DNA of 64,000 nt from Candidatus Dormiibacterota bacterium (GTDB taxonomy: Bacteria > Chloroflexota > Dormibacteria > CF-121): positions 582 to 64,581 of the forward strand of contig DASWBA010000067.1 of the NCBI GenBank assembly GCA_036390825.1. Reading direction: 5' to 3'. The notes beneath the pieces are model-generated. The model was not told the DNA's origin, ran no database searches, and saw nothing but the letters and a program-made list of their open reading frames with translations. The translations under genes were made by a program, and so were the position numbers. This document shows, piece after piece, positions 10,092-61,759 of this stretch (its first letter is position 1; each line of letters starts with the position of its first letter).

Positions 10092-12041
10092 TCAGCGGAC
10101 TGCCGATCCCGCGACCAGCCCAACCAGGAGCAGCACTCCGAACGCGCCGTGCAGGCGGGCGGTCATGAGGTCGATCATCGCGATCGCGCGCAGGTGGCCC
10201 TCGGCCCCGCGCTCGGCGTCCCGCAAGATCCAGGCGACGAGCGGCAGGCTGAAAAGGGTCAGCAAGGCGAGCGTGGGCAGTGCCCCCACCATCACCGCCA
10301 GGCCGACGGCGACGTAAGCGCCCAGGATGAGCATCACGTACACCCAGTGGGCGGCGTCCTGGCCGACCTGGGCGGAGAAGGTGGTGAAGCCGTGCCGCGT
10401 ATCCTCGGCGACGTCGCGCCACTCATTCCCGTGCAGGATGGCGGTGACGAGCAGGCCCACCGGCAAGGAGACCACCAGCAGGTTCGCGTCGAAGCTGCCG
10501 GTGACGGCGTAGTAGGAGCCGATCACCATCAGGGGCCCCATCAAGACGAAAACCAGTGGAAGCCCGAGTGCCCGGTACTTGTACTGAAAGGGCGGTGCGG
10601 TATAGAAGTAGCCGCCGATGAAACCGATCACCCCGAGCAGCACGATCGGCCAGCCCCGCTGGAGCAGGAGGAAGATGCCCATCAGCAGTGCCAGGATGAA
10701 GCCCGACCAGGCGACGACAAAGGCATCACGCTCGCTGATCCGGCCCTTGAGAATTGCCATCGACATCCGCGGCGACGTGATCGCATCGATCCCATGCCGG
10801 ACGTCGTAGATCTCGTTGGTCACGTTGGTCCCGATGTGGAGGCCGAGTGCGCCGAGCAGCGCTGCAAGGAAGAGCGCCCAATGCATGCGGCCCTGGCTGA
10901 GCGCGATGGCGCCGCCGACTGCAACCGGTAGCAGCGATGCGGTGAAGCTGAACGGCCGCACCACCTCCCAGGCGCCGGCGAGGCGGCGGCCCAAGCCCGG
11001 CCCGACCTGCGTACGTTCCCCTCCCCCGCGTGCGGGGGAGGGCAGGGTGGAGGCCGTTGCGGCGCGTGATGCATAGGCGACGGCCGCGTCGAAGACGGCG
11101 TTCACCTGGGCTTCTTCCTGCAAGATCGGCTGCAGCAGCGGCACGTCCATGCCGGCCTCGTGGTAGTCGGCGGCGCGGGCCGCGACCTGGTCGACGGTGC
11201 CGCACAGGATGAAGGCGTCGAGCAATTCATCCGGGATCAGCTCGCCGGCGCGGTGGTAGTCCTCGGCACGCCAGGCGGTCGCGATCTGGCTGCGCAGCCC
11301 CGGGTCGAATCCGGCGCGCTTCATCGAGATGTCGCTGAGGACCGACATCATGTAGATCACGAACGGCTCGCGCTTGGCCCGATTCAATGCTTCCTGCCGG
11401 CTGCTGTCGAAGAGGCAGAGGAGGTAACCACGGAAGTCGATGTCACCGGCGGACCGTCCATGCGAAGCGGCGCTCTCGAGCACCCGGGTGCGCATTTTCT
11501 GAAAGGCAGGTAGCGACTCGGCGGGACGCGCCAGGTAACCGTCGGCCTTTTCGCCGCAGAGGTCGAGGAAGGGGGTGCGGTAGGCGGCAATGTAGATCGG
11601 GATCCGGTGGGGCGGCTGGAACATCGGTTGGAGAGGAGGAACTTTGTCGTTGAGCTTCAGCGGTTGGCCCGTCCAGAGCCGGCGAATCTGGTCGATCGAT
11701 TCCGAGACACGAGCCACCGTGTCGTCGTAGGGGATCGCCATCTGGGAAAGGCGCAGGGGCAAGCCGCTCCCCAGCGCCAGTGTCACGCGGCGCGGCGCCA
11801 GGTCATCGAGGGCCGACATCGTCATCGCCACCACCACCGGATGGCGCGTGTAGGGGTTGAGGGCGCCGGCGCCGAGCCCGATGCGGCGGGTCTCCATCCC
11901 CATCGCCGTCAGGTAGGTGATCGGGTCTCGCTCGAAATAGCTGTCATGGACCCAGACCGAATCGAGGCCGAGGTCCTCGGCCCGTCGAGCCCACTCGGCG
12001 GTGTCGGTGACGCTACCCCGGGCGGCGAGTCCCAAACCCAC
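10092..12041 (-). CDS. menA: LLM-class (luciferase-like) flavin/F420-dependent oxidoreductase fused in frame to a UbiA-family prenyltransferase (MenA-like)
   Basis: N-terminal half: VGLGLAARGS...LGLDSVWVHDSYFERDPITYL...GSGLPL (LLM). C-terminal half: about eight TM helices with NEIYDVRHGID (the UbiA NxxxDxxxD motif). There is no stop between them. An internal TTG at 10994 could give a separate 300-aa MenA. GTG 12041 was chosen as the start. Confidence 0.7.
   Translation of the reverse strand: MGLGLAARGSVTDTAEWARRAEDLGLDSVWVHDSYFERDPITYLTAMGMETRRIGLGAGALNPYTRHPVVVAMTMSALDDLAPRRVTLALGSGLPLRLSQMAIPYDDTVARVSESIDQIRRLWTGQPLKLNDKVPPLQPMFQPPHRIPIYIAAYRTPFLDLCGEKADGYLARPAESLPAFQKMRTRVLESAASHGRSAGDIDFRGYLLCLFDSSRQEALNRAKREPFVIYMMSVLSDISMKRAGFDPGLRSQIATAWRAEDYHRAGELIPDELLDAFILCGTVDQVAARAADYHEAGMDVPLLQPILQEEAQVNAVFDAAVAYASRAATASTLPSPARGGGERTQVGPGLGRRLAGAWEVVRPFSFTASLLPVAVGGAIALSQGRMHWALFLAALLGALGLHIGTNVTNEIYDVRHGIDAITSPRMSMAILKGRISERDAFVVAWSGFILALLMGIFLLLQRGWPIVLLGVIGFIGGYFYTAPPFQYKYRALGLPLVFVLMGPLMVIGSYYAVTGSFDANLLVVSLPVGLLVTAILHGNEWRDVAEDTRHGFTTFSAQVGQDAAHWVYVMLILGAYVAVGLAVMVGALPTLALLTLFSLPLVAWILRDAERGAEGHLRAIAMIDLMTARLHGAFGVLLLVGLVAGSAVR
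11019..11050 (-). repeat. REP-like palindromic element, copy B (opposite orientation, inside an ORF)
   Basis: Plus strand: ccctccccc-gcgtgc-gggggaggg-cagggtgg. It encodes the linker STLPSPARGGGE of the fusion. Confidence 0.85.
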
Positions 12042-12119
12042 CCGGCGCGCGAGCTCTGCCACGTGATCAGCATAATCGTGAGCGTGGGGCAAGAAACGCG
12101 GGCCGATGGGATCCGGGCG

Positions 12120-12776
12120 ATGTTCGACCAGATCGCGCCCCGCTACGACACCGCCAACAGCGTCTTCAGTCTTGATCGTGATCGGGCCTGGCGGCGACGG
12201 GCCGCCCGACTCACCCGGTTGCAGCCCGGGCAGACGGCGCTCGATCTCTGCACCGGCACGGGGAAGCTTGCCCACGAGCTCGTGCCGCTGGTCCGCCCCG
12301 GCGGCCGCGTCATCGGGATCGATTTCTCGCCCGGAATGCTGGCCCTGGCGCGCGCCCGTGAACCTGATATCGAGTTCCGGCAGGGAGACATCACCAGGCT
12401 CGCGGAGGCCGAGGCGAGCGTCGACGCGGTGACCATCGGCTTTGGACTGCGCAATCTCGTCGACCGAGACGCCGCGCTGCGCGAGATGCGACGCGTGTTG
12501 CGACCGGGGGGACGCCTGGTGATCCTCGAGTTTGCTCCGCCCACCGGGCCGCTCATGGCCGCCTATCGTTTCTACCTCGGCCGCGTCATGCCCGCGGTCG
12601 TTCGAATTTCGAGCGCAAGCGAGGCGAACGCGTACCGCTACCTCGCGGAAACCGTGTCGGGCTTCCCGCCGCCGGCCGTGCTCGCCCGCGACATGGAGGC
12701 GATTGGGTTCGAGGTCGCGGTGCAGCGGATGACGATTGGCATCGTAGCCTTCCACGTCGGGGTCCGAAGGGACTGA
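12120..12776 (+). CDS. ubiE: Demethylmenaquinone/ubiquinone C-methyltransferase (UbiE/MenG)
   Basis: MFDQIAPRYDTANSVFSL, SAM motif LDLCTGTG, and VTIGFGLRNL. An alternative GTG start lies at 12084. Confidence 0.88.
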   Translation: MFDQIAPRYDTANSVFSLDRDRAWRRRAARLTRLQPGQTALDLCTGTGKLAHELVPLVRPGGRVIGIDFSPGMLALARAREPDIEFRQGDITRLAEAEASVDAVTIGFGLRNLVDRDAALREMRRVLRPGGRLVILEFAPPTGPLMAAYRFYLGRVMPAVVRISSASEANAYRYLAETVSGFPPPAVLARDMEAIGFEVAVQRMTIGIVAFHVGVRRD

Positions 12777-25412: not shown

Positions 25413-27740
25413 GTGTCGACCTACTCCGGTGGTTGGTCGACTCAGCAGCTCGCCGAGTTCCTGACCGCCATCGCGTCCTACTCGGACCGGCCCGCCGCGC
25501 TCAAAGGGGCCGTCGAGCGGGTCGCCGAGGCGTTGGAAGCGGAGGTTGCGGCCGTCGTCCAGGGCAATGATGTTCTGGCCTCAGTCGGGTTTCCAGCCGA
25601 CGACGTCCCCACCGCGGTGCTCTGCGCGGCGACCGCGCAAGACGCTGCAACCATCGACCTGCCGTCCCTTGGGGTTTGCCGCATTTCGATCGTGGCACTG
25701 GAGACGCCGAAAGATGCGCGCCTTCTGGTCGCACGAACCGGAGATTCCGAATTCGTCCGCGAAGAGGTGGTTCTCTTGCGGGCCCTGGGGCGCGGCCTGG
25801 CGCTAACGATCCGCTCGCTCGCGGCGCTCGAGGAAGAGCGACACCTGCGTGTCCGGACCGAGGCGCAAAGCCGAGAGAACGTTCGGCTGGTGCGTCAATT
25901 GCAGGAACGTCAGACGCTGCTCGAACGGCTGGCCAAGATCGGCCAATCGATCTCGCACCGTGCTCCGTTCACCGAGGTGCTCGACGCGATCGTCCGTGGT
26001 GCCAGCGAGCTCGTCAATGCGGAGATCGCCAGCTTCCGCTTGCGCGACCCGGCCAAGCCGGACGCGTTGGTGATTCTCGCGCACGTCGGCCTCGCACCGG
26101 AGGTTCTGGCCGAGATGGCCCGGGAGCCTGCCTATCGGGGTGCCAGCAGTCGTGCTGTGGCGGACGACGAGCTGGTGGTCATACCGGATTACCCACGGTT
26201 CGAGGGAGGGGTCGTCGCCCTGGTTCGCGATGGCGTCCAGGTCGCGATGGCCGCGCCTGTACGGGAAACGGGGCGGATCGTCGGGAGTCTCACGGTGGCC
26301 TCGCGCGAGGCCGGGCGCGTGTTCACGCCGGCGGAACAGGACACCCTGGTCGCCTTTGCCGAACACGCCAGCCTCGCGCTCACGGACTCCAAGATGGCGG
26401 CCGCCATGCAACACCAGGTCCTTCACGATGCGCTCACCGACCTGCCCAACCGCACCCTCTTTCTTGATCGCCTCGAACACGCGCTCGCCGGTGCGCGGCG
26501 GGAGGTGGGGTCGATCACGGCGGTCTTCTTCATCGATCTCGATCGCTTCAAGAATGTCAACGACAGCCTGGGGCATGAGGCAGGCGACCAGTTGTTGATT
26601 CAGTTGGGGCGCCGTCTGCGTGGCTCGATTCGCGAGGTGGACACGCCGGCCAGGCTTGGCGGCGACGAGTTTGCCGTCCTCGTGGAAGGGGTGGCGGACC
26701 TCAACGAGGTGATCATCGTCGCCCAGCGAATCCGCGACAACTTGCGCCAGCCGGTGACGATCGGCGGCAACGAGGTCTTCAGCAACCCCAGCATTGGTGT
26801 GGCCACCAGCAGCGATGGGCGAGAGGCCGCGTCCGAGCTGCTCCGCAATGCGGACACGGCCATGTATCGCGCCAAGGAGACGGGCACCAGGCCCTGTGTC
26901 GTCTTCGAGCCGACGATGCATGCGGCGGTGATGCGCCGCCTCGAACTGGATGCCGACCTGGCGCGCGCGGTGGAGCGCAACGAATTCGAGCTGCATTATC
27001 AGCCGGTGGTTCGACTCGATGGGGAGGCGATCGATGGTGCCGAGGCGCTGGTCCGCTGGCGCCATCCGGTTAAAGGGCTCATCCCTCCGGCAGAATTCAT
27101 CGGAGTCGCCGAGGAAAACGGACAGATCGTGCCGCTGGGCCGCTGGGTCTTGCAGGAGGCGATCCGCCAGGCGGTCGAGTGGGAGGCGACCCTGCCGGAT
27201 CGCGGGCCCTTCAGCCTGAGTGTCAACGTGTCCGCGCGGCAGCTGCAGGATCCCGACCTGGTTGGGCAGCTCACGCGCATGCTGTTCGAAGCCGCGTTCA
27301 ACCCGGCTCACCTGGTGCTCGAAATCACAGAGTCCGTGCTGATGCAGGACAAGGGGGGAATGGTGGCAAGGCTGCGGGAGCTGAAGCAGCTGGGTCTACG
27401 ACTGGCCATCGACGACTTTGGGACGGGGTATTCCTCACTCGGATACCTGCGGCATTTTCCGGTCGACGTCCTCAAGATCGACAAGGCGTTCGTCGATGAC
27501 ATCGTCGGAGGGACTGAGCAGTCGGCCGTGGCTCGAGCCATCATCGGCCTCAGCGATGCCCTGCACCTGACCACTGTCGCGGAAGGCATCGAAACGGCGG
27601 GCCAACTTGGCCTACTCCGGTCGCTGGGTTGCGAGCTGGGACAGGGATACTATTTCTCGCCGCCGCTGCCAGCGATGGCCTTCGAAGCAATGTTGCGGCA
27701 TGGCCTTGGCTGGAAACCGGGCGTTTCAGCCGCTGCCTGA
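25413..27740 (+). CDS. GAF-GGDEF-EAL c-di-GMP turnover protein
   Basis: GGDEF (ARLGGDEFAVLV) with RxxD I-site REVD. EAL (GAEALVRWRHP), EITES, DDFGTGYSSL. Start is 2 nt after the FIST stop. Confidence 0.9.
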   Translation: MSTYSGGWSTQQLAEFLTAIASYSDRPAALKGAVERVAEALEAEVAAVVQGNDVLASVGFPADDVPTAVLCAATAQDAATIDLPSLGVCRISIVALETPKDARLLVARTGDSEFVREEVVLLRALGRGLALTIRSLAALEEERHLRVRTEAQSRENVRLVRQLQERQTLLERLAKIGQSISHRAPFTEVLDAIVRGASELVNAEIASFRLRDPAKPDALVILAHVGLAPEVLAEMAREPAYRGASSRAVADDELVVIPDYPRFEGGVVALVRDGVQVAMAAPVRETGRIVGSLTVASREAGRVFTPAEQDTLVAFAEHASLALTDSKMAAAMQHQVLHDALTDLPNRTLFLDRLEHALAGARREVGSITAVFFIDLDRFKNVNDSLGHEAGDQLLIQLGRRLRGSIREVDTPARLGGDEFAVLVEGVADLNEVIIVAQRIRDNLRQPVTIGGNEVFSNPSIGVATSSDGREAASELLRNADTAMYRAKETGTRPCVVFEPTMHAAVMRRLELDADLARAVERNEFELHYQPVVRLDGEAIDGAEALVRWRHPVKGLIPPAEFIGVAEENGQIVPLGRWVLQEAIRQAVEWEATLPDRGPFSLSVNVSARQLQDPDLVGQLTRMLFEAAFNPAHLVLEITESVLMQDKGGMVARLRELKQLGLRLAIDDFGTGYSSLGYLRHFPVDVLKIDKAFVDDIVGGTEQSAVARAIIGLSDALHLTTVAEGIETAGQLGLLRSLGCELGQGYYFSPPLPAMAFEAMLRHGLGWKPGVSAAA

Positions 27741-35188: not shown

Positions 35189-35542
35189 GTGGGCGTGAAC
35201 GGGCCGGTTGTTCTCACCACGGTCGCTTTTCTTCTTGCCGGGGCCGCGCTAGGCTACGCCTCGCTCGCAGCCGGGCCGCTTCCAGCCGCCACGGGGGTCA
35301 TCTTCCTGGTGCTGTTGCTGGCCAGGTTCCGAAGCCGACCGGAGCAGCCCGGTGGCTACATGCTCGGCGGGGGATTGGCCGGGGCGGTGATTCTGTTCAA
35401 GGTGATGGCCGACTGTTCGCCGCCGTCATGCACGTTCAAGCTCATCACGCCAATCGTCGGGGTCCTGTTTATCGCCGTCGCCGTTGCTGGAGCCGGGCTG
35501 CTGGTGCGCGCCGTCATGGAGCACCGCTTCTCGTCACGCTGA
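35189..35542 (+). CDS. Hypothetical small membrane protein (3-4 TM helices)
   Basis: A hydrophobic ORF with high third-position GC. No recognisable family. Confidence 0.45.
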   Translation: MGVNGPVVLTTVAFLLAGAALGYASLAAGPLPAATGVIFLVLLLARFRSRPEQPGGYMLGGGLAGAVILFKVMADCSPPSCTFKLITPIVGVLFIAVAVAGAGLLVRAVMEHRFSSR

Positions 35543-36157
35543 TTCGGCGTTGCGCTTGGGTACGCCCAGCTTGGCCATGACCCGCTCGAACAGGTCATAC
35601 GGTTGGGCGCCCATCACCAGGTAGCGGTCGGCGATGACATGGGCGGGGATGCCGTTGATGCCCAACTCCTCGGCCTCGGCGCGACGGGCATCGAGATAAT
35701 CGCCGAATCGGTCGGTTGCGATCGCCGCCTCCATCCCCGGCACGTCGACGCCGGCCTTCGAGGCGACCTCGCAGAGGACGGCGATGTCCGACACGTCTTT
35801 CCCTTCGTCCCAATAGGCCCTGAGCAGCTCGTGGTGCATCGCGTCGAAATGACCCTGCTCGCGGGCGAATTCGGCGGCCTGCAGGGCGGGACGGGAATTG
35901 ATCAGGCGTTCATGCTGTGCGAGACGGAGGCCGACGGCAGCCCCCATTCGACTTACCCCCTCCTGGGCCCTCGCCATGTAGGCGGCCGGTAGGACCTCCT
36001 CGCGAGGCCGGCCTTCGGGCGGGATCTCAGGGTGCAGCTCGAAGGGCACCCATTCGATCTCAACCTCGTATTCCCGCGCCAGCCGCTCGACTCCGACCGA
36101 GTCGATATAGCAGAAGGGTCAGACGTAGTCTGAGTAGATCCGCACGGAAGTCGGCAT
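35534..36157 (-). CDS. DsbA/FrnE-like thiol:disulfide oxidoreductase with in-frame TGA (candidate selenocysteine, U-P-F-C active site); alternatively a nonsense pseudogene
   Basis: ATG 36157. Reads MPTSVRIYSDYV-TGA(36121-36119)-PFCYIDSVGVERLAREYEVEIEWVPFELHPE..., and the frame is continuous with track ORF 35534-36049. A SECIS-like hairpin lies downstream. Confidence 0.6.
36087..36105 (-). other. bSECIS-like stem-loop: (U)CGACUC-GGUCG-GAGUCG(A)
   Basis: Perfect 6-bp stem (7 bp with the flanking U-A pair). The loop contains GGUC and begins 20 nt after the UGA. Confidence 0.5.
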
Positions 36158-36185
36158 GCCCCGAGGATAGCCGGTACAATTCAAG

Positions 36186-36212
36186 TTAGCACTCGCGGAT
36201 CGAGACTGCCAA
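36186..36212 (+). promoter_or_regulatory. CIRCE operator (HrcA binding site): TTAGCACTC-N9-GACTGCCAA
   Basis: The left arm is a perfect consensus and the right arm matches 7/9 of GAGTGCTAA. It ends 4 nt before the hrcA ATG. A TACAAT -10 box lies at 36175-36180. Confidence 0.8.
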
Positions 36213-36216
36213 TACC

Positions 36217-37254
36217 ATGGAAGCAACTCCCCTCGACGAGCGCAAGCAGCAGATCCTGAAAGCCGTGGTCTCGGACTACACCGTGACCGGGGTCCCGGTC
36301 GGCTCGCAGGTGCTGGCGGCCAAGTACTTCATCGCGCTGTCCTCGGCGACGATCCGCAACGAGCTGGCCGACCTGGTCGGCACCGGCTACCTGCAACAGC
36401 CGCACACCTCGGCGGGCCGGGTCCCGACGGACCGGGGCTACCGCTACTTCGTCGATTTCCTCATGGACCCCGAGGCCGCCTCGCCGACCGTCCGGCGGAC
36501 CGTCAAGCAGGCTTTTGAAACGGCGCCGCATAGCGTCGAGGGGATCCTGGAGAAGGCGGCGATGGTGCTCGCCCAGATCACCGAGAATGTCTCGCTGGTC
36601 ACCGCGCCTGAGACCAGCGAGGCGCGCATCAAACACATCGACCTGGTCTCACTGGAGTCGCAGTCCGTCCTGATCATCCTGGTGCTCGAGGGCAACCTCA
36701 TCAAGCAGACGGTGATTCGTCTCGAGCGGGCGACGTCTCAGGATGACCTCAGCCGGATGGCCGCCATGCTGAACCGCAAGGTCAAGGGGCAAACCGCCGA
36801 AGAGCTCCTGTCCCGGTTGCAGCAGCTCGGTCCCGATCGCGATGAGCAGCGCCAGATCCTCGAACGTGTCATCGATTCGATCAGCACCCACCAGGCGCAA
36901 CGGCAGTCGGTGGTCCTGCATGACGGCGTGCGCAACCTGCTGCGCCATCCGGAGTTCGTGGAGGTCAACCGGCTCGAAGAGTTGCTGGAATTACTGGAGC
37001 AGGGCGCCCAGCTGGCCGGCATCTTGCAGCAGGTGGCCTTCGACAAGGACGTCGAGATCATCATCGGTCGCGAGAATACGAGCAGCGGCTTGCGCGAGTG
37101 CAGCCTGGTGCTGACCACCTACAAGATGGACGAGCGGGTGCGAGGCACGATCGGCGTTATCGGGCCGACCCGAATGCATTACGGGCAAGTCGTGGCCCGG
37201 GTCCGGCTGGTCAGCCAGGCGACCTCCGAGCTCCTTGGCCCGCTCGGGAACTGA
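36217..37254 (+). CDS. hrcA: Heat-inducible transcription repressor HrcA
   Basis: ERKQQILKAVVSDYTVTGVPVGSQVLA...SSATIRNELADL...GYLQQPHTSAGRVPTDRGYRYFVD. Confidence 0.93.
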   Translation: MEATPLDERKQQILKAVVSDYTVTGVPVGSQVLAAKYFIALSSATIRNELADLVGTGYLQQPHTSAGRVPTDRGYRYFVDFLMDPEAASPTVRRTVKQAFETAPHSVEGILEKAAMVLAQITENVSLVTAPETSEARIKHIDLVSLESQSVLIILVLEGNLIKQTVIRLERATSQDDLSRMAAMLNRKVKGQTAEELLSRLQQLGPDRDEQRQILERVIDSISTHQAQRQSVVLHDGVRNLLRHPEFVEVNRLEELLELLEQGAQLAGILQQVAFDKDVEIIIGRENTSSGLRECSLVLTTYKMDERVRGTIGVIGPTRMHYGQVVARVRLVSQATSELLGPLGN

Positions 37255-43757: not shown

Positions 43758-44957
43758 GTGGGATCGACCGTTACGTTGCACCTCGCGGAGCTCGACTCTA
43801 CTGCCGAGCCACCCGAGTCCGCCGCCCAGGCGCTGGACCGGTCGCTGGAAGGTCACGACTACGGTCCCCTGACGCCACTGTTGCTGGACGACACCATCAG
43901 CGAGGTGATGGTCAACGGGCCAAACCAGGTCTACATCGAGCGCAAGGGACAGCTCACCCTGGCCGACGTGAGATTTGCCAGCGACGCCGAGCTGGTCCGG
44001 GTGATTCGTGATATTGCGGCTTTCGTCGGGCGGCGCATCGACGATGACTCACCAATGGTCGACTGCCGGCTGCCGGACGGCTCGCGCGTCAATGCCGTGA
44101 TCGCGCCGCTGGCCCTCGACGGCGCCTCCCTCACGATCCGGAAGTTCGCGCGGGATCCGTATACCGTCGAGGACCTGATCAAATTCGGAACGCTCTCGGC
44201 GGAGGCCGCCGCCTTCCTGGAAGCCTGCGTCAAAGCGCACTTCAACATCCTGGTCGCCGGCGGCACGGGATCCGGCAAGACCACCACGCTGAACGTCCTG
44301 TCCTCCTTCATTCCCGACAACGAGCGGGTCGTCACCATCGAAGACGCGGCCGAGCTGCAGCTCCGCCAGCCGCACAAAGTCCGGCTCGAGTCGAGGCCGG
44401 CCCGAATCGACGGCACCGGCCGGATCAGCATTCGCGAGCTGGTCGTAAACGCACTTCGGATGCGACCCGATCGCATCGTTATCGGCGAGTGCCGCAGCGG
44501 TGAGGCGCTCGACATGCTGCAGGCGATGAACACCGGCCACGATGGATCGCTGACCACCATCCACGCCAACACGCCACGCGACACGCTGTCCCGCCTCGAG
44601 ACGTTGGTGCTGATGTCCGGTGTCGACCTGCCGCAGCGTGCCATCCGCGAGCAGATCGCCTCCGCCATCCACCTGATCGTGCAACAGTCCCGGCTGCGTG
44701 ACGGTTCACGCCGGATGACGAATATCACCGAAGTCATCGGCCGCGAAGGCGACACGATCACGCTTCAAGACGTCTTCCTCTTCGAGGAAACGGGCATCGA
44801 CGGCAACGGCCGCATCCAGGGCAAGCTGAGTCCCACCGGGATCCGGCCACAGGCGATGGCGAAGATTTACTCAAAGAAGGTGGCGATCTCGCCGGCGCTC
44901 GCCGCCCTCTATCCCGACCGCAAGGCGCCGGACTTTACCTTGGGGGTGCGCCGATGA
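43758..44957 (+). CDS. cpaF: CpaF/TadA-family secretion ATPase (type II/IV secretion NTPase)
   Basis: EVMVNGPNQVYIERKG, Walker A GGTGSGKTT, TIEDAAEL, RMRPDRIVIGECRSGEA, TGHDGSLTTIHAN. Confidence 0.9.
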   Translation: MGSTVTLHLAELDSTAEPPESAAQALDRSLEGHDYGPLTPLLLDDTISEVMVNGPNQVYIERKGQLTLADVRFASDAELVRVIRDIAAFVGRRIDDDSPMVDCRLPDGSRVNAVIAPLALDGASLTIRKFARDPYTVEDLIKFGTLSAEAAAFLEACVKAHFNILVAGGTGSGKTTTLNVLSSFIPDNERVVTIEDAAELQLRQPHKVRLESRPARIDGTGRISIRELVVNALRMRPDRIVIGECRSGEALDMLQAMNTGHDGSLTTIHANTPRDTLSRLETLVLMSGVDLPQRAIREQIASAIHLIVQQSRLRDGSRRMTNITEVIGREGDTITLQDVFLFEETGIDGNGRIQGKLSPTGIRPQAMAKIYSKKVAISPALAALYPDRKAPDFTLGVRR

Positions 44958-51099: not shown

Positions 51100-52143
51100 G
51101 TGCGCATCGGCGTCCTCACTGGCGGTGGCGACGCCCCCGGACTCAACGCCGCCATCCGTGGCGTAGCTCGCCGCGCGTTTCAGCGCGGTTTCGAGGTCAG
51201 CGGCATCAAGAATGGCTGGGCCGGGTTACTTGGTGATGGCGACCTCGAGGACCTGACGATGGCATCGGTCCGTGGCATCCTTCCGCTGGGCGGCACCATT
51301 CTGGGCACGTCGCGGACGAATCCACTCAAAGAAAAAGGCGGGATCGAGAAGGTGGTCAGCCTGCTGCGCGCCTCTGGCATCGACGGCCTCGTGGCGATCG
51401 GCGGCGACGACACGCTCTCGGTCGCGGCGGCGATGAGCGACGCCGGCTATCCCGTGGTCGGCGTGCCCAAAACGATCGACAACGACCTGTCGGTCACCGA
51501 GTTCTGCATCGGCTTCGATACGGCGGTGGGGGTCGTCGTCGAGGCGCTCGATCGGCTGCACACAACCGCGTCCGCGCACCACCGCGTGATGGTGGTCGAA
51601 GTGATGGGCCGCGATACCGGCTGGGTCGCGATGGTGGGCGGTCTGGCGGGCGGCGCCGATATGATCATCATTCCGGAGTTTCCGGCCGAGCTCGATGCGG
51701 TGGTGAACCATCTGCATCACCGTCGCGGTGAAGGCAAGGACTTCAGCATCATCGTCGTCGCCGAGGGCGTCAAGATGCGCGCCCTCGAACCGGCCGTCCC
51801 TATCGCCGCCGGTGCGGAGAAGCGCGACGCCTTCGGCCACGTGCAGCTCGCCAAGCAGGGTGTCGGCGATGCACTCAGCACCCGGATCGAGGAAGCTACT
51901 GGCTTCGAGACACGCGTCACCGTGCTCGGTCACCTGCAGCGTGGTGGTTCGCCCTCGCCAGTCGACCGGATCTGGGCCACCCGCCTCGGCGTGGCGGCTA
52001 CTGACCTGCTGGCCGATCGCAAGGCCGGCTTGATTCCAATCCGTCGCGACGGCCAGGTTGCGATCGTGCCCCTGCGCGATGTCGTCGCGGAAACTCGCCG
52101 CGTACCGCGCGAGCTCTACGACCTCCAGCTCGTCTTCGGCTAG
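51100..52143 (+). CDS. pfkA: 6-phosphofructokinase (ATP- or PPi-dependent; specificity not assignable)
   Basis: RIGVLTGGGDAPGLNAAIR, IGGDDT, PKTIDNDL, MGRDTGW, LGHLQRGG. Confidence 0.9.
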   Translation: MRIGVLTGGGDAPGLNAAIRGVARRAFQRGFEVSGIKNGWAGLLGDGDLEDLTMASVRGILPLGGTILGTSRTNPLKEKGGIEKVVSLLRASGIDGLVAIGGDDTLSVAAAMSDAGYPVVGVPKTIDNDLSVTEFCIGFDTAVGVVVEALDRLHTTASAHHRVMVVEVMGRDTGWVAMVGGLAGGADMIIIPEFPAELDAVVNHLHHRRGEGKDFSIIVVAEGVKMRALEPAVPIAAGAEKRDAFGHVQLAKQGVGDALSTRIEEATGFETRVTVLGHLQRGGSPSPVDRIWATRLGVAATDLLADRKAGLIPIRRDGQVAIVPLRDVVAETRRVPRELYDLQLVFG

Positions 52144-54617
52144 CTGGCCCGGCGTTTTTGCCGATAGAGGGTGGCATCGGCCGCAGCGAGTAGGTCCTCG
52201 GCGGTGGTGCCATCTTGCGGGAAGGTCGCCACTCCGAGGCTGACTCCAGGGATCTGGAGCAAATCGCGGCCGGCCATGAAACGGTGCCGGGCGATGCCAT
52301 CGGAGATGCGCTGGGCTACGACCGCGGCCGCTGCGGCTCCAGTCGCCGGGAGCAACACGACGAACTCATCGCCGCCGTAGCGCGCCACCACATCCTCGCC
52401 TCGGACCGCATCCGTCAGGGCGTTCGAGACCTCCCGGAGGAGTGCGTCGCCGGCGAGGTGGCCATAGGTGTCGTTGATTCGCTTCAGCCCATCGACGTCA
52501 AGGAAGACGATGGAGAAGCTGTCGCCCGCGGCTACCGCTCGATCCACGGTTTGCTGAATGCGCTCGAGGAAGAGCCGGCGGTTGTTGAGCCGTGTCAAGG
52601 GGTCGTGGCTCGCCTCGCGCTTGAGACTGTCGTGGAGTTGGGCAACCTCGAGCGATGAGGCCAGCTGCGATCCCACCGCCGACATCAGCGCGACGTCGGC
52701 CTCGGAGAAGGCATCGGGTTGCAGGCTCTCCGCGTTCAAGACACCTACGACGCGGCCTCGACTGATCAGCGGAAAGGCGAGCTCCGACCGAACCTGGTCG
52801 TCGACCCCGATGTAGCGGGGTTCGGCTCTGGCATCCGGAACGATTTTGGCGACACCATGGGTGAACACCCAGCCGGTGATGCCCTCGTCGCCCGAAATCG
52901 TGAGCCCGGTGATATCGACGTTGTAGCCGCTCTGCGCCCCGACTCGGAGCTCATCGGGTCTTGGTCCGGGCAGGAGGATGGCGACCATGGAGTAGCCCAT
53001 GACCTCGCGAATGATGGTCACGATGCGGCTGAGAAGGGTGTCAAGGTCGAGCACCGCGGTGGTTTCCTGTGCGACACGGTAAATGATGCGGAGCTCGCGC
53101 GAGTCAGCCACGGACAATATGTCCCGGAGAGCGGCCGGCGCCGGGGGCTGGGGACTGTTCATCGCTTCCAGCATCTGTGTGAACCACGGCGCCTGGCTCG
53201 ACTCGGCCTGGCGGCACATGCGGATGAAGGCATCCGTTATGGCGGGGTCCAGGTTGATGCCCCGAAAACGCGCCAGCTCCTCAAGACCCTCTGCGACCGT
53301 GGTTGCACTCTTGACCGGAACGTCGAAGGTGACGTTGAAGAATGCGGTGACCACTGAGATGACGCGGGTCTCGATCGGGATCGCTTCGCCTTCAAGGCCG
53401 TCGGGATACCCCTCGCCGTTGAACCACTCGTGGTGCGATCGGACTAGCGGTGCCAGGTCGGACAACGGTTTGAACCGCCCAAGCAGGTCGGCGGCGACAA
53501 CCGGGTGGGTCATGATCAACGCCCGCTCTTCGGCACTCAACCGGCCGCGTTGCTTGAGGATGCTTTCCGGGACGTTGAGCTTCCCCAGATCCTGGAGCAG
53601 CGCCGCATATCGGATTCGCCGCCGCCGTGGCGCGTCGAACCCGAGATATTCGGCTAAGCGCTCAGCCAGCTCGGCATGCTCTCTCGCCCGACTGTGCATC
53701 GCCTGACGGAGCTCGATCGCCCCGGCGAGGGTGAGCACGGCGGCCTCCTCCACCTGGCGCGACTCGTCGAGAAGGCGGGCTGTCTGCAAGGCGGCCGCCG
53801 TCTGGTTCGCAAAGGCCATCACGGCCGGCACGTCGGTCTCTTTCAGCCCGGGGCCCAGCACGGTGATGGCTCCGATGGCCTTGCCCTCGAGCACCAGCGG
53901 GGCAGAGATCAGCGTGTGCAGATGGAGCAGCTCGCTCAGCTTGCGGGCGTTTCCGACGCTGCTGGGCGGCAGGACCATTGCCACCCGGCCAACCAGCTCA
54001 TCGGGATCGCCGACGTAGTGGGCTCGCAGGGTGGTGCAGACGTCGTGGAGGACGGGGATGCGGTCGAACGGCAGGAAGTTGCCAACCTCCTGGCGGCCGA
54101 TTAACTTGCCGACGTCGGCGGGCGCTTCCTGCGTTTGCCGAAACGCCACCACCAGCCCCTTGCCGTCCGGCGCCAGGTCGAAGAGGTAGGTGGACAGGCC
54201 GGCCTGCGCGAGCCGGCTGCCGACCGCGGTAAAGATCGCCTCGCGGTTCAGGTGCTGCAACGCCTGGAGGCCGGCATCGGCGAGAGCGCTGAACAGTGCC
54301 CCGGGGGTCCGGGATTCGCCGGCCCGGTCGGGGGCCATCTGCGGCAGAAACTGGGAGAACCCTGCCTCTGCCAGTCGCTCCGGGCGGAAGAACCAGACTC
54401 GGCCGATCTTTTCCGCGGGCAGCCGGCCGTCGCGCGCCTGTCGCCGAACCACCTCCGGATGCCGATGGATGGCGACCGCGACCTGCTCGACCGACAGCAG
54501 GTTCGGCAGCTTCAGCGCCAGGGAAACCGACGGTTGTGTGACGCGACGCTTCACTGCTCCCTGCAACGAAGGAAGGTCCGCCTTCCTACGTCTTATTGCC
54601 AGTGGAAGCCTTCCCAT
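52140..54617 (-). CDS. HTH(excisionase-type)-GAF-degenerate HD-GYP-GAF-GGDEF multidomain c-di-GMP protein
   Basis: LLSVEQVAVAI...GRLPAEKIGRVWFF (HTH_17-like). HD-GYP region with QDLGK instead of HDIGK, and HHEWFNGEGYP. GGDEF RYGGDEFVVLL with I-site RGED. An alternative GTG start lies at 54554. Confidence 0.85.
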   Translation of the reverse strand: MGRLPLAIRRRKADLPSLQGAVKRRVTQPSVSLALKLPNLLSVEQVAVAIHRHPEVVRRQARDGRLPAEKIGRVWFFRPERLAEAGFSQFLPQMAPDRAGESRTPGALFSALADAGLQALQHLNREAIFTAVGSRLAQAGLSTYLFDLAPDGKGLVVAFRQTQEAPADVGKLIGRQEVGNFLPFDRIPVLHDVCTTLRAHYVGDPDELVGRVAMVLPPSSVGNARKLSELLHLHTLISAPLVLEGKAIGAITVLGPGLKETDVPAVMAFANQTAAALQTARLLDESRQVEEAAVLTLAGAIELRQAMHSRAREHAELAERLAEYLGFDAPRRRRIRYAALLQDLGKLNVPESILKQRGRLSAEERALIMTHPVVAADLLGRFKPLSDLAPLVRSHHEWFNGEGYPDGLEGEAIPIETRVISVVTAFFNVTFDVPVKSATTVAEGLEELARFRGINLDPAITDAFIRMCRQAESSQAPWFTQMLEAMNSPQPPAPAALRDILSVADSRELRIIYRVAQETTAVLDLDTLLSRIVTIIREVMGYSMVAILLPGPRPDELRVGAQSGYNVDITGLTISGDEGITGWVFTHGVAKIVPDARAEPRYIGVDDQVRSELAFPLISRGRVVGVLNAESLQPDAFSEADVALMSAVGSQLASSLEVAQLHDSLKREASHDPLTRLNNRRLFLERIQQTVDRAVAAGDSFSIVFLDVDGLKRINDTYGHLAGDALLREVSNALTDAVRGEDVVARYGGDEFVVLLPATGAAAAAVVAQRISDGIARHRFMAGRDLLQIPGVSLGVATFPQDGTTAEDLLAAADATLYRQKRRAS

Positions 54618-54625
54618 CCGGGCCG

Positions 54626-55615
54626 ATGCCCGAACGCCGGACCATCCTGGTCACGGACGACAGTAGCGCCAATCGCGATCTGCTTTGCGGACAGCTTTCC
54701 ACCCTGGGTTTCTGGACGGAAGCCGCGACCAATGGCGAGGAGGCCGTCCGCGCCGCCCGGCGGCTCAAGCCGGACCTGATCCTGATGGACATCGAGATGC
54801 CGGTGATGAACGGGCACCAGGCCTGCAAGCAATTGAAATCGGACCCGGAAACGGCCGAGATCCCGGTCTTGATGATGACCGGCTTCGACCCCCGGCCGGA
54901 GCGCGCCAAGATGGTGGAAGCCGGTGGCGACGACCTGATCGTCAAGCCGATCCCGATGCGCGACCTCCAGGTTCGCGTACGGGCGCTGCTCCGCCTCAAG
55001 GAACTGCGGCGCGACCTCCGCAGCACCCAGGAAAGCCTGCGTGAGCTGGTCAAGAAGGAAGACCCGACCGAGTCGAAGGAGCCCTTCGACGACCGGGTCG
55101 CCATGACGGCCCAGGCGCTGGCGCGGTTGATCGGCCTCGACGCGGAGGACCAGGAGGTCGCCTTCCATGCCGGCCTACTGCATGACATCGGGCAGATCGG
55201 CCTCCCGGAAGAACTGCTGAACAAGCAGGGGAGCTACACCGCAGAAGAGTTCGCCCAGATCCAGAAACACACGATCCTGGGCGCCGAGCTCGCCGGTCCC
55301 TTTCGACCGGCGACCGTCCTGGCGCCGGCCATCCGGCATCACCACGAACGATGGGATGGAAGCGGCTATCCCGACAAGCTGCAGGGCGCAGCGATTCCGA
55401 TGATGGCCCGCATCGTCGCCGTTGCCGACGCCTTCCACGCCATGATCACGGACCGACCCTACCGGCCGCGGCACTCGGTTGCCAGGGCCCTGGAGATCCT
55501 TGCCGCCGGATCCGGTACCCAGTGGGATCCCCGCCTGACCGCCGCCTTCGCGACCTCGTCCCTGCCCCAGCGCATCGCGGGCGTGGTCGAGGGCGACGCA
55601 GCCAAGATCGCCTAG
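54626..55615 (+). CDS. Response regulator with HD-GYP phosphodiesterase output (RpfG-like)
   Basis: ILVTDDSSANR...LILMDIEMPVMNG; LLHDIGQI, HHERWDGSGYPD, AVADAFHAM. Confidence 0.88.
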   Translation: MPERRTILVTDDSSANRDLLCGQLSTLGFWTEAATNGEEAVRAARRLKPDLILMDIEMPVMNGHQACKQLKSDPETAEIPVLMMTGFDPRPERAKMVEAGGDDLIVKPIPMRDLQVRVRALLRLKELRRDLRSTQESLRELVKKEDPTESKEPFDDRVAMTAQALARLIGLDAEDQEVAFHAGLLHDIGQIGLPEELLNKQGSYTAEEFAQIQKHTILGAELAGPFRPATVLAPAIRHHHERWDGSGYPDKLQGAAIPMMARIVAVADAFHAMITDRPYRPRHSVARALEILAAGSGTQWDPRLTAAFATSSLPQRIAGVVEGDAAKIA

Positions 55616-56216: not shown

Positions 56217-56366
56217 TCAGCGCAGTAGCAATTGCGTCACGGCGACCGTCATCGCGCCCAGCGCCAGCGCGACCAGCGCCAGGGCCAGCAGCGGCTGCCG
56301 GACCCGGTTCGGCCGCCGAGGCGGGGCGAAATCGACGCCGACCTGGGCGTATTCAGGCCGCGACAC
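56217..56366 (-). CDS. Unannotated 49-aa single-TM protein in the PilN position (mini-PilN candidate)
   Basis: GTG 56366 is preceded by GGAGG and overlaps the pilM 3' end by 14 nt. Product: MSRPEYAQVGVDFAPPRRPNRVRQPLLALALVALALGAMTVAVTQLLLR. It is below the ORF-track length cutoff. Confidence 0.5.
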   Translation of the reverse strand: MSRPEYAQVGVDFAPPRRPNRVRQPLLALALVALALGAMTVAVTQLLLR

Positions 56367-57264
56367 GGCTGTCACCTCCCTGTGTTGGGGTAAGGCGGTC
56401 GTACCAGCGCGCCTGCATCAGCAGGCCCAGCCCGGCAAGGTGCGCCTGCCAGGGAAAGCCCGGGGCCGAGGTGAAGCGCGTGGTCGGGACGGTGATCGTG
56501 AAATCGAAACGTTGCTCGGCCCGCTGGATGCCGTCGGGAAGGAACGCGAACCGCCCACCGAGCGCCAGTGTCGTTGTCGGGCTGATCGCGACATCGGACG
56601 CGGTGCCCCGCATGAATTTCACCAGCGCGTTCAGGGCGTGGGTCAACTCCTCGAGCTGCGCCTCGGGATCGTCGGATGAGGCGTCGAGGACGAACGTCCG
56701 GAAAAACCGAGGGCGGCCTTTGACCATCAGTACCAGCGTCGCCTCGGCGGCCGCCCACTCGAGGAGCAACCCATCCGAGACCCCCATGCCACGGGCCAGG
56801 GCCAGCGGCTTGAGGTCAATGCGCTCGACCTGGAGGCCGGCCGAGCTGACCGCCGCCACGATGGCGTCGATCATGTCGCGCCGAGCGGCTACGAGGTAGA
56901 CGGCGTAGCCGGTCTTGTCGCGGATCGCGTGCCACGCGAAATGGACGTCGGCCGCCTCCATCGGAACCTGGCGGCGACCTTCGAACTCCACCGCACGACG
57001 GAGCTCGCCGGCGGGCAACCGTGGTAACCGAAAATCCCGAAAGGCGGTGCCGGTCTCCGCGATGGCGAGGCGGGCCCGGGTCGCGGTGAAACCCCCGGCC
57101 TCGAGCGCGCTACGGAATGCCGTGGTCAGCAGCGGCGTCGGCATCCCGTCCACCAGCGCGCCGTCAGGGAGCAGGATCTCGGAATGTCGTGTCAGCTTCC
57201 GACCGCTGACCTCCAGGATCTTGAGCTCATGGGCCCCCAGGTCGAGGGCGAGGCGCGCGGTCAT
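56353..57264 (-). CDS. pilM: Type IV pilus assembly protein PilM (actin-like ATPase fold)
   Basis: LALDLGAHELKILEV...LRRAVEFEGRRQVPM...VYLVAARRDMIDAIV. ATG 57264 has a GGAGG RBS and an ATGA overlap with the upstream gene. Confidence 0.85.
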   Translation of the reverse strand: MTARLALDLGAHELKILEVSGRKLTRHSEILLPDGALVDGMPTPLLTTAFRSALEAGGFTATRARLAIAETGTAFRDFRLPRLPAGELRRAVEFEGRRQVPMEAADVHFAWHAIRDKTGYAVYLVAARRDMIDAIVAAVSSAGLQVERIDLKPLALARGMGVSDGLLLEWAAAEATLVLMVKGRPRFFRTFVLDASSDDPEAQLEELTHALNALVKFMRGTASDVAISPTTTLALGGRFAFLPDGIQRAEQRFDFTITVPTTRFTSAPGFPWQAHLAGLGLLMQARWYDRLTPTQGGDSRVAA

Positions 57265-57734
57265 TGATACGCCTCCCAGTTGATCGTCCACGACGCCTTC
57301 TTACCCGCGTTGGATGAGGCGATCTGGGCATTCAGCTGGCGGTTGGTCCCTGTGGCCGCCACGTTGATGTTGTAGGTCGGCTTCCCTGGCTTGCACCCCG
57401 GCGCGGCTGTGATGGTGACGCTGACCGTCATCGTGCCCGAGCTATAAGCGAGCGGGAAGTTTCCAGCGTTGTTGATGCAACCGGCGCCCTTGGCGGCCGA
57501 GTCGTTGATCTCGATCGCGTAGGCCAGACCGGAATCGAGGGCATAGGTAGTCCGCGTATCGGCGCGGACGCTCCCCTGGCCGAGGAATGCTCCGCTCGCC
57601 AGCGTGAGCGCCGCCCACACGACCAGTAGGAGAGCGGCGACGAACCCAAGCACGACGAGCAAGGCCTGGCCACGCTGGCGCGCGAGGCCCCCACCCTGCC
57701 CTCCCCCAGAGGGGGAGGGCCGATGGAGGCGCAT
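57261..57734 (-). CDS. PilX-N-like pilus assembly protein (membrane anchored, no prepilin cleavage motif)
   Basis: ARQRGQALLVVLGFVAALLLVVWAAL resembles the PilX_N/TadG-type anchor. The only available start (ATG 57734, TGATG overlap) puts a REP element into codons 5-16. Confidence 0.6.
   Translation of the reverse strand: MRLHRPSPSGGGQGGGLARQRGQALLVVLGFVAALLLVVWAALTLASGAFLGQGSVRADTRTTYALDSGLAYAIEINDSAAKGAGCINNAGNFPLAYSSGTMTVSVTITAAPGCKPGKPTYNINVAATGTNRQLNAQIASSNAGKKASWTINWEAYQ
57689..57719 (+). repeat. REP-like palindromic element, copy F (inside the 5' end of the PilX-like ORF)
   Basis: ccccaccctgccctccccc-aga-gggggaggg. Translated on the minus strand as PSPSGGGQGGG. Confidence 0.85.
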
Positions 57735-58201
57735 CAGAAGCAGCCTCCGGGTCGATTGCTCACGTTGAGGGTCGAGGCGGTTGACCCAACCGCTGACGGC
57801 TGGATGGTGACCGTCGCATAGCAACCGGCGACGGCGATGGTCACGCTGGTGATGCCGCGGGCGGCGACCTGGGCGGTTCCGTTGACGGTCCGGATCAAGT
57901 TGCGGTTGGCGTCGATGCTGTAGACGACCGTAATCACGGGCGATCCATGGGTCAGGGTCAGCGGCGTGGCCGAATTGATGGTCCCCGCCGTAACCGCGAC
58001 CGCGCTGCTCAGGTCCCGGACGAGCGACAGGCTGGCATCGCTGGTGGCGTTGTCGGCGGCGATGACGCGCGCCTCATTGCTGATCGCCCGAATGCCGACC
58101 AGGAAGGTACTGGCCATCACCAGGGTGACGATGCTCAGTATCGTGATCCCGATCAACGCCTCGACGATGGTGTATCCCCGCTGTCCGGTGGTCCGCGTCA
58201 T
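57734..58201 (-). CDS. Minor (pseudo)pilin with prepilin-type N-terminal domain
   Basis: MTRTTGQRG|YTIVEALIGITILSIV (Gly at -1, Glu at +5). Confidence 0.8.
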   Translation of the reverse strand: MTRTTGQRGYTIVEALIGITILSIVTLVMASTFLVGIRAISNEARVIAADNATSDASLSLVRDLSSAVAVTAGTINSATPLTLTHGSPVITVVYSIDANRNLIRTVNGTAQVAARGITSVTIAVAGCYATVTIQPSAVGSTASTLNVSNRPGGCF

Positions 58202-58575
58202 GGCTCCGCCTTCAGGAAGATCAGCGTTTCCCGTGCTCCATTCGGGCCATTGACGGTCAGAACCAGCTGTTGCAATCCAAGGTCCGGGTTGCCGGCAGCA
58301 AACCCCAGGACCGGGTCCCAGTAGGAGACCTGATAGGAGAAGGCAAAGCCGCCCGCCACCAGGTTGGTGTAGACGGCCGGACTTGGCGAGTAGGCCTGGC
58401 TCTTGATGTATTCCGCATCCGAGCGGGTCAGCAGATCGAGCGTGGTCTGCTGCCTGTGTCGCGCGGCGGCGATCGTGATGGCGGAGAAGGCGCTCAGGAT
58501 GCTGACGACGATGATCGCCAGCAGGGCGATGGCGACCATCGTCTCGATCAGGCTGACCCCGCGCTTTCGCGTCAT
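58198..58575 (-). CDS. Minor (pseudo)pilin with prepilin-type N-terminal domain
   Basis: MTRKRG|VSLIETMVAIALLAIIV (Gly at -1, Glu at +5). Confidence 0.8.
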   Translation of the reverse strand: MTRKRGVSLIETMVAIALLAIIVVSILSAFSAITIAAARHRQQTTLDLLTRSDAEYIKSQAYSPSPAVYTNLVAGGFAFSYQVSYWDPVLGFAAGNPDLGLQQLVLTVNGPNGARETLIFLKAEP

Positions 58576-59801
58576 TTCAGCGCCCCGACCAGGCCGTACA
58601 TGGCGGAGATGAGCGACACCGCGATGAATCCGACAACGATGCCGACGGCAACCGTCATCACCGGCTCGATCAAGGAGGTCATGGCGCGGATCCTGTAGTC
58701 GAGCTCCTCTTCGTAGAAATCCGCGGCCTGCTCGAGGTAGGTGTCGAGCGTTCCGGTCTCCTCGCCGACCCGCACCATCTGGGTCAGCATCGGCGGAAAC
58801 AGGTGGGTGCGGAGGAGTGGGCCGGCAAACCCCTCGCCGCCGGTCATCTGCTCTTTGACCGTCGCCAGCCCGCGTTGAAAAACCTTGTTGCCGGTGCCGG
58901 CGATCACAGCGTCGAAGGTCTGCCCAAGAGGGACGCCGGCTTTCAGGACCATGGCGAGCGTGCGGGAAAAGCGATTGAGCACCGCCGAGAGGACGATCGG
59001 TCCTATGACCGGGAGCTTTAGCGAGATCTGGTCTTTGGCATACTGGCCGCGCAGCGTCCGCAGCGCGATCACGATGGCGCCGACGATCGATGCGATGACA
59101 GCGCCCATCAGGAGGCCCCAGGCTCGGGTGAAGGCGACGATCCCGATCAGAATTCGGGTCGATAGCGGCAGCTTTACGCGAAATTCGGCGAAGATCTTGA
59201 CGAAGGCCGGGAGGGCGAAGAAGACGAGGATGATGACCACGGCCGTGGCGACGACGAGGATGACGGCCGGATAGATCATGGCGGTCCGGACACGACGCAC
59301 CGTGTTCAGGTCACGCCGCAAATAGCCGGCGAGCTCTTTGAGCGTCGCTTCGAGGTTACCGGTGAGCTCGGCGACCCGGATCAGGTCGACGTACAGGCTG
59401 GGGAAGACTTTCGGGTGTTTGACCAGCGAATCGGAGAGATTCTGTCCTCGCTCCAGGTCGTCGAGGACCGTGAGGATGACCCGCTTGAACAGCGGCGACG
59501 CCGTCTCTTCCGCGATGACCGTCAGCGCCCGGGTCATCGGGACGCCGGCGCCGACAAAGGTCGCGAGCTGACGGGTGAAGAGGATGAGGTCTTGTCCCGA
59601 GATCTGGTAGAGGGATGGAAAGTAGTCCGCCATCGTCTTTTTCGGCGGCGCAGGGTTGAGCTGGACGATCTTGAGACCCTCGAGCCAGAGCGCCTGCTCG
59701 GCGTCTGAGGTACCGGCGGCCTCGATCCGACCTTCGCGTTTCTGCCCACGTTCGTTGTAGGCCTTGTAGGCGAAGCTAGGCACTGTTCCCCTCGCTGACA
59801 T
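58572..59801 (-). CDS. pilC: Type IV pilus platform protein PilC (GspF family)
   Basis: Two T2SSF repeats, three TM segments, and a typical C-terminus ...VGFIAVSLISAMYGL. Confidence 0.9.
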   Translation of the reverse strand: MSARGTVPSFAYKAYNERGQKREGRIEAAGTSDAEQALWLEGLKIVQLNPAPPKKTMADYFPSLYQISGQDLILFTRQLATFVGAGVPMTRALTVIAEETASPLFKRVILTVLDDLERGQNLSDSLVKHPKVFPSLYVDLIRVAELTGNLEATLKELAGYLRRDLNTVRRVRTAMIYPAVILVVATAVVIILVFFALPAFVKIFAEFRVKLPLSTRILIGIVAFTRAWGLLMGAVIASIVGAIVIALRTLRGQYAKDQISLKLPVIGPIVLSAVLNRFSRTLAMVLKAGVPLGQTFDAVIAGTGNKVFQRGLATVKEQMTGGEGFAGPLLRTHLFPPMLTQMVRVGEETGTLDTYLEQAADFYEEELDYRIRAMTSLIEPVMTVAVGIVVGFIAVSLISAMYGLVGALK

Positions 59802-61691: not shown

Positions 61692-61759
61692 CTATTTCCC
61701 TCTAACCGGAGCAAACGCGTCAAGCGGCGCAAACCTGCGCTCGGGAGGGCCGAGGCGGG

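Follow-up and report, generated by a model that had tools for sequence, protein, structure and literature searches.

The question raised by this locus is whether a TGA triplet in the reading frame of a thiol-disulfide oxidoreductase gene acts as a stop codon or as a codon for selenocysteine (Sec). The gene lies on the minus strand of a 64,000-nucleotide stretch of contig DASWBA010000067.1 (assembly GCA_036390825.1, Candidatus Dormiibacterota bacterium), and the whole of this stretch is referred to here as the window. An initial annotation, made from the DNA letters and a list of open reading frames (ORFs), had proposed that the gene encodes a Sec-containing FrnE/DsbA-like oxidoreductase with a Sec insertion sequence (SECIS) similar to that of Escherichia coli fdhF, and all of the checks that we ran supported this proposal. 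We consider it highly probable that the UGA at codon 13 encodes Sec in a cytoplasmic, FrnE-type thiol-disulfide oxidoreductase of 207 amino acids (aa), which has the DsbA fold and a U13-P-F-C16 active site. The doubt that is left concerns the Sec machinery of the host.

ORF finders start the gene at GTG 36049 and report a product without an active site (Table 1). Read from ATG 36157, the same minus-strand frame gives MPTSVRIYSDYV-TGA-PFCYIDSVGVERLAREYEVEIEWVPFELHPE..., with no further break until the terminating TGA, and the in-frame TGA at 36121–36119 falls on the first Cys of a CxxC motif; the frame, the position of the TGA and the start of the shorter ORF are thus as the initial annotation had described them. 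When the 207-aa product was translated with C for the internal stop, Pfam DSBA (PF01323) matched residues 5–193 with E=2.3e-32 and 112.8 bits, relative to a cutoff of 25.6. The best match of solved structure was FrnE from Deinococcus radiodurans (drFrnE; PDB 5CNW), with E=3e-23 and ~30% identity over residues 5–188. In this alignment the CPWC of FrnE was placed on U-P-F-C, with the TGA codon falling on FrnE Cys22, and the proposed FrnE/DsbA identity was in this way confirmed. The S-D-x-x-U-P-x-C motif is invariant in the homologue alignment, as is the cis-Pro region, G-I-P171, which is present in the window protein. No NCBIfam model reached its cutoff on the window protein. The fold starts at residue 5, with no N-terminal extension and hence no room for a signal peptide, which suggests that the protein is cytoplasmic.

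The TGA is strictly conserved. The relatives with a stop at this codon, referred to as Sec forms, number 67 (the window, 21 species-representative genome loci and 45 metagenome contigs), and 67/67 use TGA, never TAA or TAG; the same TGA is present in 66 independent assemblies over a range of protein identity from 30 to 89%. The 21 TGA-bearing genome loci are labeled as Chloroflexi metagenome-assembled genomes (MAGs), Dormibacterota, Limnocylindria, Eisenbacteria, Thermomicrobiales, Dehalococcoidia, Chloroflexia and Archangium. The remaining 93 relatives fetched (59 more distant ones from species-representative genomes and 34 from the metagenome scan) are all Cys forms, with TGC or TGT at the same codon (SDYV-TGC/TGT-PFC versus SDYV-TGA-PFC). 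In a rough neighbor-joining tree, the window falls within a 51-tip clade that consists entirely of Sec forms, and the tree requires at least six Sec/Cys switches overall, in keeping with the dynamic Sec/Cys exchange described in the literature. Elsewhere in the window TGA is an ordinary stop: the terminal TGA of lepA coincides exactly with the end of the LepA_C profile, and both hrcA and the selenoprotein gene itself also terminate in TGA. The recoding is therefore local. A scan of the window for a second selenoprotein, in the form of ORF pairs in one frame separated by TGA, returned only antisense frames or consecutive genes.

Downstream of the TGA lies the hairpin CGACUC-GGUCG-GAGUCG (36104–36088), extended by a flanking U-A pair (36105/36087). 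The TGA is followed at 14 nt by the start of the hairpin and at 20 nt by the start of its loop, so that the sequence, the coordinates and both spacings given by the initial annotation were correct. The occurrence of a hairpin next to a TGA is only suggestive when judged from the window sequence alone: of all the window's TGA triplets, 4.4% are followed at a SECIS-like distance by a perfect 6-bp hairpin whose loop has an early G, and 1.3% by one of 7 bp. The single-sequence signal is weak, and what raises it far above chance is the comparison with relatives. Across 63 distinct Sec-form sequences, 94.3% of the cells of the 7-bp helix are standard pairs, compared to 23–53% when the 3′ arm is slid. 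Two-sided changes, first noticed on 22 sequences, are found in these 63 at four of the seven pairs (A-U to G-C, C-G to U-A or A-U, and U-A to C-G or G-C); the observed covariation was reached by none of 500 shuffles, and RNAalifold independently predicted the identical helix. Of the 67 Sec forms, 50 pair completely (7/7) and none has fewer than four pairs; complete pairing is seen in only 5 of the 93 Cys forms. The loop reads GGUC-N in 48/64 aligned sequences, with G at position 1 in 60/64, G at position 2 in 63/64 and U at position 3 in 54/64. The comparison with orthologues and with Cys homologues that had been proposed at the outset therefore came out in favor of a SECIS, in that TGA and hairpin are both conserved among the former, with covariation and frozen synonymous sites (see below), and most of the latter lack the hairpin. 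A 3-bp lower helix with an internal loop is possible (Table 1), with 88% of cells paired and changes that are mostly one-sided (U-G/U-A), and is less well supported than the upper helix; it occupies columns 23–25/50–52, which replaced a first guess that paired columns 21–24 with 48–51 (76% paired).

The hairpin is similar to the fdhF SECIS of E. coli, in that both are situated inside the coding region right after the UGA and GGUC starts the apical loop in both, the loop G and U being conserved positions. The distance from the UGA to the start of the loop is 20 nt in the window and 18 nt in fdhF; the latter value, which had been stated in the initial annotation, holds on the real E. coli sequence, where the UGA is codon 140. 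The window hairpin differs from that of fdhF in having a pentaloop rather than a tetraloop and a perfect 7-bp stem, and its binding by SelB is a prediction.

Two sets of observations weigh against reading the codon as Sec. The first of these concerns the host: selA, selB, selD and tRNA-Sec were found neither in the 64-kb window nor in any of the loci fetched, and Sec decoding by the host is predicted. In the window and in the 21 Sec-form loci from genomes, ARAGORN found no tRNA whatsoever, and hence no tRNA-Sec, the Pfam annotation of the 40 larger ORFs of the window contained no SelA, SelB or SelD, and tblastn with E. coli SelA, SelB and SelD against the window and the loci fetched by then matched only the GTPase domain of LepA. 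A search of the available literature found no paper linking Dormibacterota with selenocysteine; for Chloroflexi, Sec decoding and the special 8/4 tRNA-Sec have been documented (PMC1794560, PMC5389517). The lack of Sec machinery in the DNA examined is in keeping with an alternative in which the hairpin stimulates read-through of the UGA with insertion of a standard residue, i.e., Trp or Cys via a near-cognate tRNA, or Cys via the Sec machinery, so that the protein would be an ordinary thiol enzyme or inactive. The evidence for read-through as such is good, but which residue is inserted is deduced from sequence comparison, and this too leaves the alternative some room. However, TGC and TGT are one mutation away and are used by 93 relatives, and yet TGA is kept in every Sec form, which is hard to explain unless UGA delivers something that Cys codons cannot. 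In addition, both the GGUC loop and its distance from the UGA agree with the SelB-binding element of fdhF, and the protein belongs to an established Sec/Cys family. We judge the insertion of a standard residue to be unlikely; the conservation of the TGA, its pairing with Cys at the same codon among relatives and the fdhF-like loop point to Sec as the residue inserted.

The second set of observations concerns the hairpin. A 66-nt fold of the region is no more stable than its shuffles (z=0.16). No Rfam family matched the hairpin when the whole window was searched at gathering thresholds, bacterial SECIS being poorly covered in Rfam, and a search of 36000–36220 in a permissive E-value mode gave only a chance microRNA match and no SECIS family. 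The E. coli-type bulged U (U17) is not evident in the perfect, unbulged stem; a bulged U in the upper stem is a feature of the E. coli SECIS and is not universal. Five Cys forms (L138, L143, L147, L155 and L157) also pair 7/7, as in the CGGCC-UGGGU-CGGGCCG of L155 and L157, so that the hairpin is not exclusive to Sec forms; these five may be recent Sec-to-Cys conversions with a relic hairpin, or a coincidence. Furthermore, some 8 of the 67 Sec forms have the TGA but depart from this hairpin register (L015–L018, L021, L056, L158, L161 (Dehalococcoidia-type) and L020). Single-sequence folds of these off-register forms put a different, G+C-rich hairpin further downstream, which would imply turnover of the SECIS inside one protein family.

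Given that the arms fall in conserved codons, that the fold energy is ordinary and that a few Cys forms share the pairing, the hairpin could be proposed to be a by-product of the amino acid sequence I-D-S-V-G-V-E and not a functional RNA element. The synonymous sites argue against this. In the Sec forms, synonymous diversity at arm codons +5, +6, +7 and +10 is 0.04, 0.02, 0.01 and 0.10, respectively, compared to 0.71 at the loop codon, whereas the same codons in the Cys forms have a synonymous diversity of 0.5–0.7; that is, the synonymous sites of the arms are near-frozen in Sec forms and free in Cys forms, while the loop codon is variable. Also, where the amino acid sequence of the arms has changed (D-S to G-L, G to R/E), the change is compensated in the RNA (U-A to C-G, C-G to U-A, A-U to G-C). 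Selection thus acts on the hairpin and its loop at the level of the RNA, and an origin of the hairpin as a mere coding by-product is most improbable.

The output of ORF finders and of public annotation would suggest a different product, namely the 171-aa ORF from GTG 36049, a DsbA fold without CxxC, with the upstream part as an untranslated remnant. We compared the substitutions in the ten closest sequences: at codon positions 1/2/3, the differences number 73/18/192 in codons 1–12 and 99/124/268 in codons 14–36, the stretch from the TGA to the annotated GTG, and substitutions in codons 37–200 are likewise dominated by the third position. Such third-position-dominated change on either side of the TGA means that both stretches are translated in this frame. 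The amino acids encoded upstream of the GTG are conserved, including S-D-x-x-U-P-x-C, an ATG or GTG start 12 codons before the TGA is kept in the window's clade, and the shorter product would lose strand β1 and the active-site helix of the fold. We therefore regard the 171-aa ORF as the real protein with even less confidence than a by-product hairpin. A pseudogene arising by nonsense mutation, or a sequencing error at 36119–36121, could be entertained on the grounds that TGA is one base away from TGC and TGT, but is already refuted by the comparative data, since the TGA recurs in independent assemblies without other frame lesions, and purifying selection acts throughout, on both sides of the TGA.

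With Sec as the preferred reading of codon 13, a mechanism can be proposed. The ribosome at codon 13 would not take the UGA as a stop; the mRNA 14–32 nt past the UGA would fold into the 7-bp hairpin, and, in analogy to the SECIS of E. coli fdhF, its GGUC-containing apical loop would bring SelB·GTP·Sec-tRNA(Sec) to the A site of the ribosome, in order that Sec be inserted and translation go on. SelB would in this analogy be the reader of the UGA and the hairpin. The product is predicted to form a selenenylsulfide between U13 and Cys16 and may reduce or isomerise disulfides of client proteins. This redox role is borrowed from D. radiodurans FrnE, and by the same analogy disulfide reduction or isomerisation would take place under stress.

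FrnE (DR_0659) belongs to the DsbA subfamily cd03024 and is a cytoplasmic disulfide reductase/isomerase with CP(W/F)C at the same place as the UxxC of the window protein, and the two share the cis-Pro. drFrnE has disulfide isomerase and insulin-reductase activities, a mutant is sensitive to cadmium and diamide, and the protein is induced by cadmium, radiation and desiccation (PMC8945050). The window protein differs from drFrnE in having Sec in place of the first Cys and in being without the C-terminal CxxxxC tail that regenerates drFrnE. This tail, which is found in many FrnE members but not all, was not found in the 207-aa window protein, whose end is ...KLGVPKRNAESA (...NAESA), without a C-terminal Cys pair, and whose sole Cys besides the U13/C16 center is C129. 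The tail is not a defining feature of the FrnE subfamily, as it is also absent from FrnE of D. maricopensis and S. roseofulvus. The close orthologues L001 and L002 end in ...IPEC and ...TAEC, respectively, with a single C-terminal Cys that the window protein does not have; this Cys might be a resolving or recycling thiol that stands in for the CxxxxC tail.

DsbA-like proteins had been put forward in the initial annotation as a recognized Sec/Cys family, and the literature agrees (PMC1088965, PMC1794560, PMC5029168, PMC13188914). The 2005 Sargasso Sea study of Zhang, Fomenko & Gladyshev (PMC1088965) presented the DsbA-like protein (COG2761, UxxC) as a selenoprotein family. In 2006, DsbA-like selenoproteins were identified in Anaeromyxobacter, Desulfovibrio and Desulfotomaculum; a survey from 2016 lists 45 of their genes in 41 organisms, and a 2026 review has an entry for them as DsbA-like form 1, PF01323, UxxC (PMC1794560, PMC5029168, PMC13188914); they have also been reported from marine metagenomes and Asgard archaea (PMC1088965, PMC1794560, PMC5029168, PMC13188914). 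Like the window gene, the published DsbA-like selenoproteins have the PF01323 domain, Sec as the first residue of CxxC, widespread Cys homologues and, immediately downstream of the UGA, a small stem-loop whose apical loop contains a G. The window branch, which we liken to them via the family descriptions, differs in consisting of soil lineages labeled Dormibacterota, Chloroflexi, Limnocylindria and Eisenbacteria. At the level of sequence, the window gene has every feature of the DsbA-like selenoprotein family (form 1, UxxC), and it appears as such to be a further member of a family that is already published.

What is new here, modestly, is the large soil clade (Dormibacterota, Chloroflexi, Limnocylindria), the systematic truncation of its members in annotation, and the genomic setting. 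A protein search returned hundreds of relatives with >75% identity, and among the matches listed (P0001–P0120) nearly all are 167–193 aa in length and cover 80–92% of the query, a pattern typical of gene callers that resume after a stop. The identical 171-aa product has been called on a public contig, a 2.8-kb contig of soil reads, and nearly all close homologues among the matches listed stand in the databases as fragments that lack the active site, under the names 'DsbA family protein' or 'hypothetical protein'. One homologue of 89% identity is labeled Candidatus Angelobacter (Acidobacteriota), out of line with the other labels, and this may be a binning or labeling problem.

In the window, the selenoprotein gene sits between a HemW-like radical-SAM gene, located downstream of lepA, and the divergent hrcA-grpE-dnaJ operon (Table 1). 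A gene for hrcA is divergently upstream of the selenoprotein gene in 25 related loci. On the other side of the gene, a 117-aa ORF with no Pfam family (35189–35542, plus strand) converges on it and overlaps its stop by 9 nt; this ORF is conserved at the same place in 10 related loci, with 69–87% identity.

Table 1. Coordinates of the selenoprotein gene, its predicted recoding signals and the features of the adjoining divergent spacer (positions in the window).
Feature	Position	Strand	Remarks
Full coding sequence, 207-aa FrnE/DsbA-like predicted selenoprotein	35534–36157	-	ATG 36157; predicted Sec-UGA at codon 13; terminating TGA 35536–35534
In-frame TGA, predicted to be read as selenocysteine (U13)	36119–36121	-	Position of the nucleophilic first Cys of CxxC; gives U-P-F-C
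TGC codon, Cys16, predicted resolving Cys of UxxC	36110–36112	-	Direct reading; C16 invariant in homologue alignment
171-aa ORF from GTG 36049, as reported by gene callers	35534–36049	-	Mechanical ORF list; without active site
SECIS upper hairpin (predicted)	36087–36105	-	7-bp stem (36105–36099 with 36093–36087); pentaloop GGUCG (36098–36094)
Possible full SECIS with 3-bp lower helix and internal loop	36082–36111	-	Lower helix 36111–36109 with 36084–36082
-10-like hexamer TATCCT	36164–36169	-	6 nt upstream of selenoprotein ATG
Promoter-like site for hrcA, TCGGCA-18-TACAAT	36151–36180	+	Overlaps selenoprotein start codon
CIRCE-like HrcA operator, TTGGCAGTC-N9-GAGTGCTAA (minus-strand reading)	36186–36212	.	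In 59-nt divergent spacer
hrcA, first gene of divergent hrcA-grpE-dnaJ operon	36217–37254	+	Pfam HrcA 5.5e-58, GrpE 1.2e-45, DnaJ

The divergent spacer contains an operator similar to the controlling inverted repeat of chaperone expression (CIRCE), 4 nt upstream of the hrcA ATG. The CIRCE consensus, known from Bacillus and other bacteria, is TTAGCACTC-N9-GAGTGCTAA. The window operator shares with this consensus the 9-N9-9 inverted repeat, a perfect right arm and a location just upstream of hrcA-grpE-dnaJ; it differs by two mismatches in the left arm (TTGGCAGTC) and by its placement in a divergent spacer of 59 nt, by virtue of which its control may extend to the selenoprotein gene. Upstream sequence is available for 26 loci of the window's clade, and in all of them the operator has conserved arms and a variable spacer; no CIRCE-like operator was found in any of the other Sec or Cys forms. 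Just as drFrnE is stress-induced, the window gene adjoins a heat-shock operator, and this fixed place beside the operator of hrcA suggests a role in protein-folding stress. Co-regulation of the selenoprotein gene by HrcA is plausible on the basis of the shared spacer.

The promoter-like site assigned to hrcA is the sole promoter-like match in 35400–36350 (0.1 expected from shuffles). The consensus promoter scan did not call the TATCCT hexamer at 36164–36169; a TANNNT equally far from the start codon is conserved in L001–L008, L090–L096 and L099. Its position 6 nt before the ATG suggests that the selenoprotein mRNA may be leaderless or near-leaderless, and if it is leaderless, the Sec-UGA would lie only 36 nt, and the SECIS about 50–75 nt, from the 5′ end of the mRNA. 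Taken jointly, the propositions that the selenoprotein belongs to the HrcA/CIRCE regulon, with a promoter that overlaps CIRCE and a leaderless mRNA, and that it represents the first documented use of Sec in Dormibacterota-like bacteria, are put forward tentatively, as a combination that we think rather doubtful. If true, a Sec-dependent disulfide isomerase/reductase would be a co-regulated partner of the protein-folding chaperones.

Further features of the window were observed at a distance from this locus. An 887-aa ORF (10095–12755, minus strand) has a luciferase-like monooxygenase domain (residues 243–537) and a UbiA prenyltransferase domain (residues 608–843), and may be an unusual fusion or an artefact of greedy ORF calling. 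Genes for a type IV pilus or type II secretion system (PilT-like and PilB-like T2SSE ATPases, T2SSF and PilM) are situated at 43758–44954 and 56356–62848, and adjoin several c-di-GMP signaling proteins (GGDEF/EAL/HD-GYP-like; 25413–27737 and 52143–55612).

The reading of UGA as Sec leaves unchanged the understanding of Sec decoding and of the DsbA-like selenoprotein family, known since 2005. The 64-sequence alignment is a clean natural case of SECIS constraint within a coding region, and could help to train predictors of bacterial SECIS elements. For the family, reading the UGA as Sec would restore a complete 207-aa redox enzyme to hundreds of protein records from soil metagenomes and MAGs. 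For the organisms, it would imply that abundant uncultured soil lineages labeled Dormibacterota and Chloroflexi need selenium for at least one cytoplasmic thiol-disulfide enzyme.

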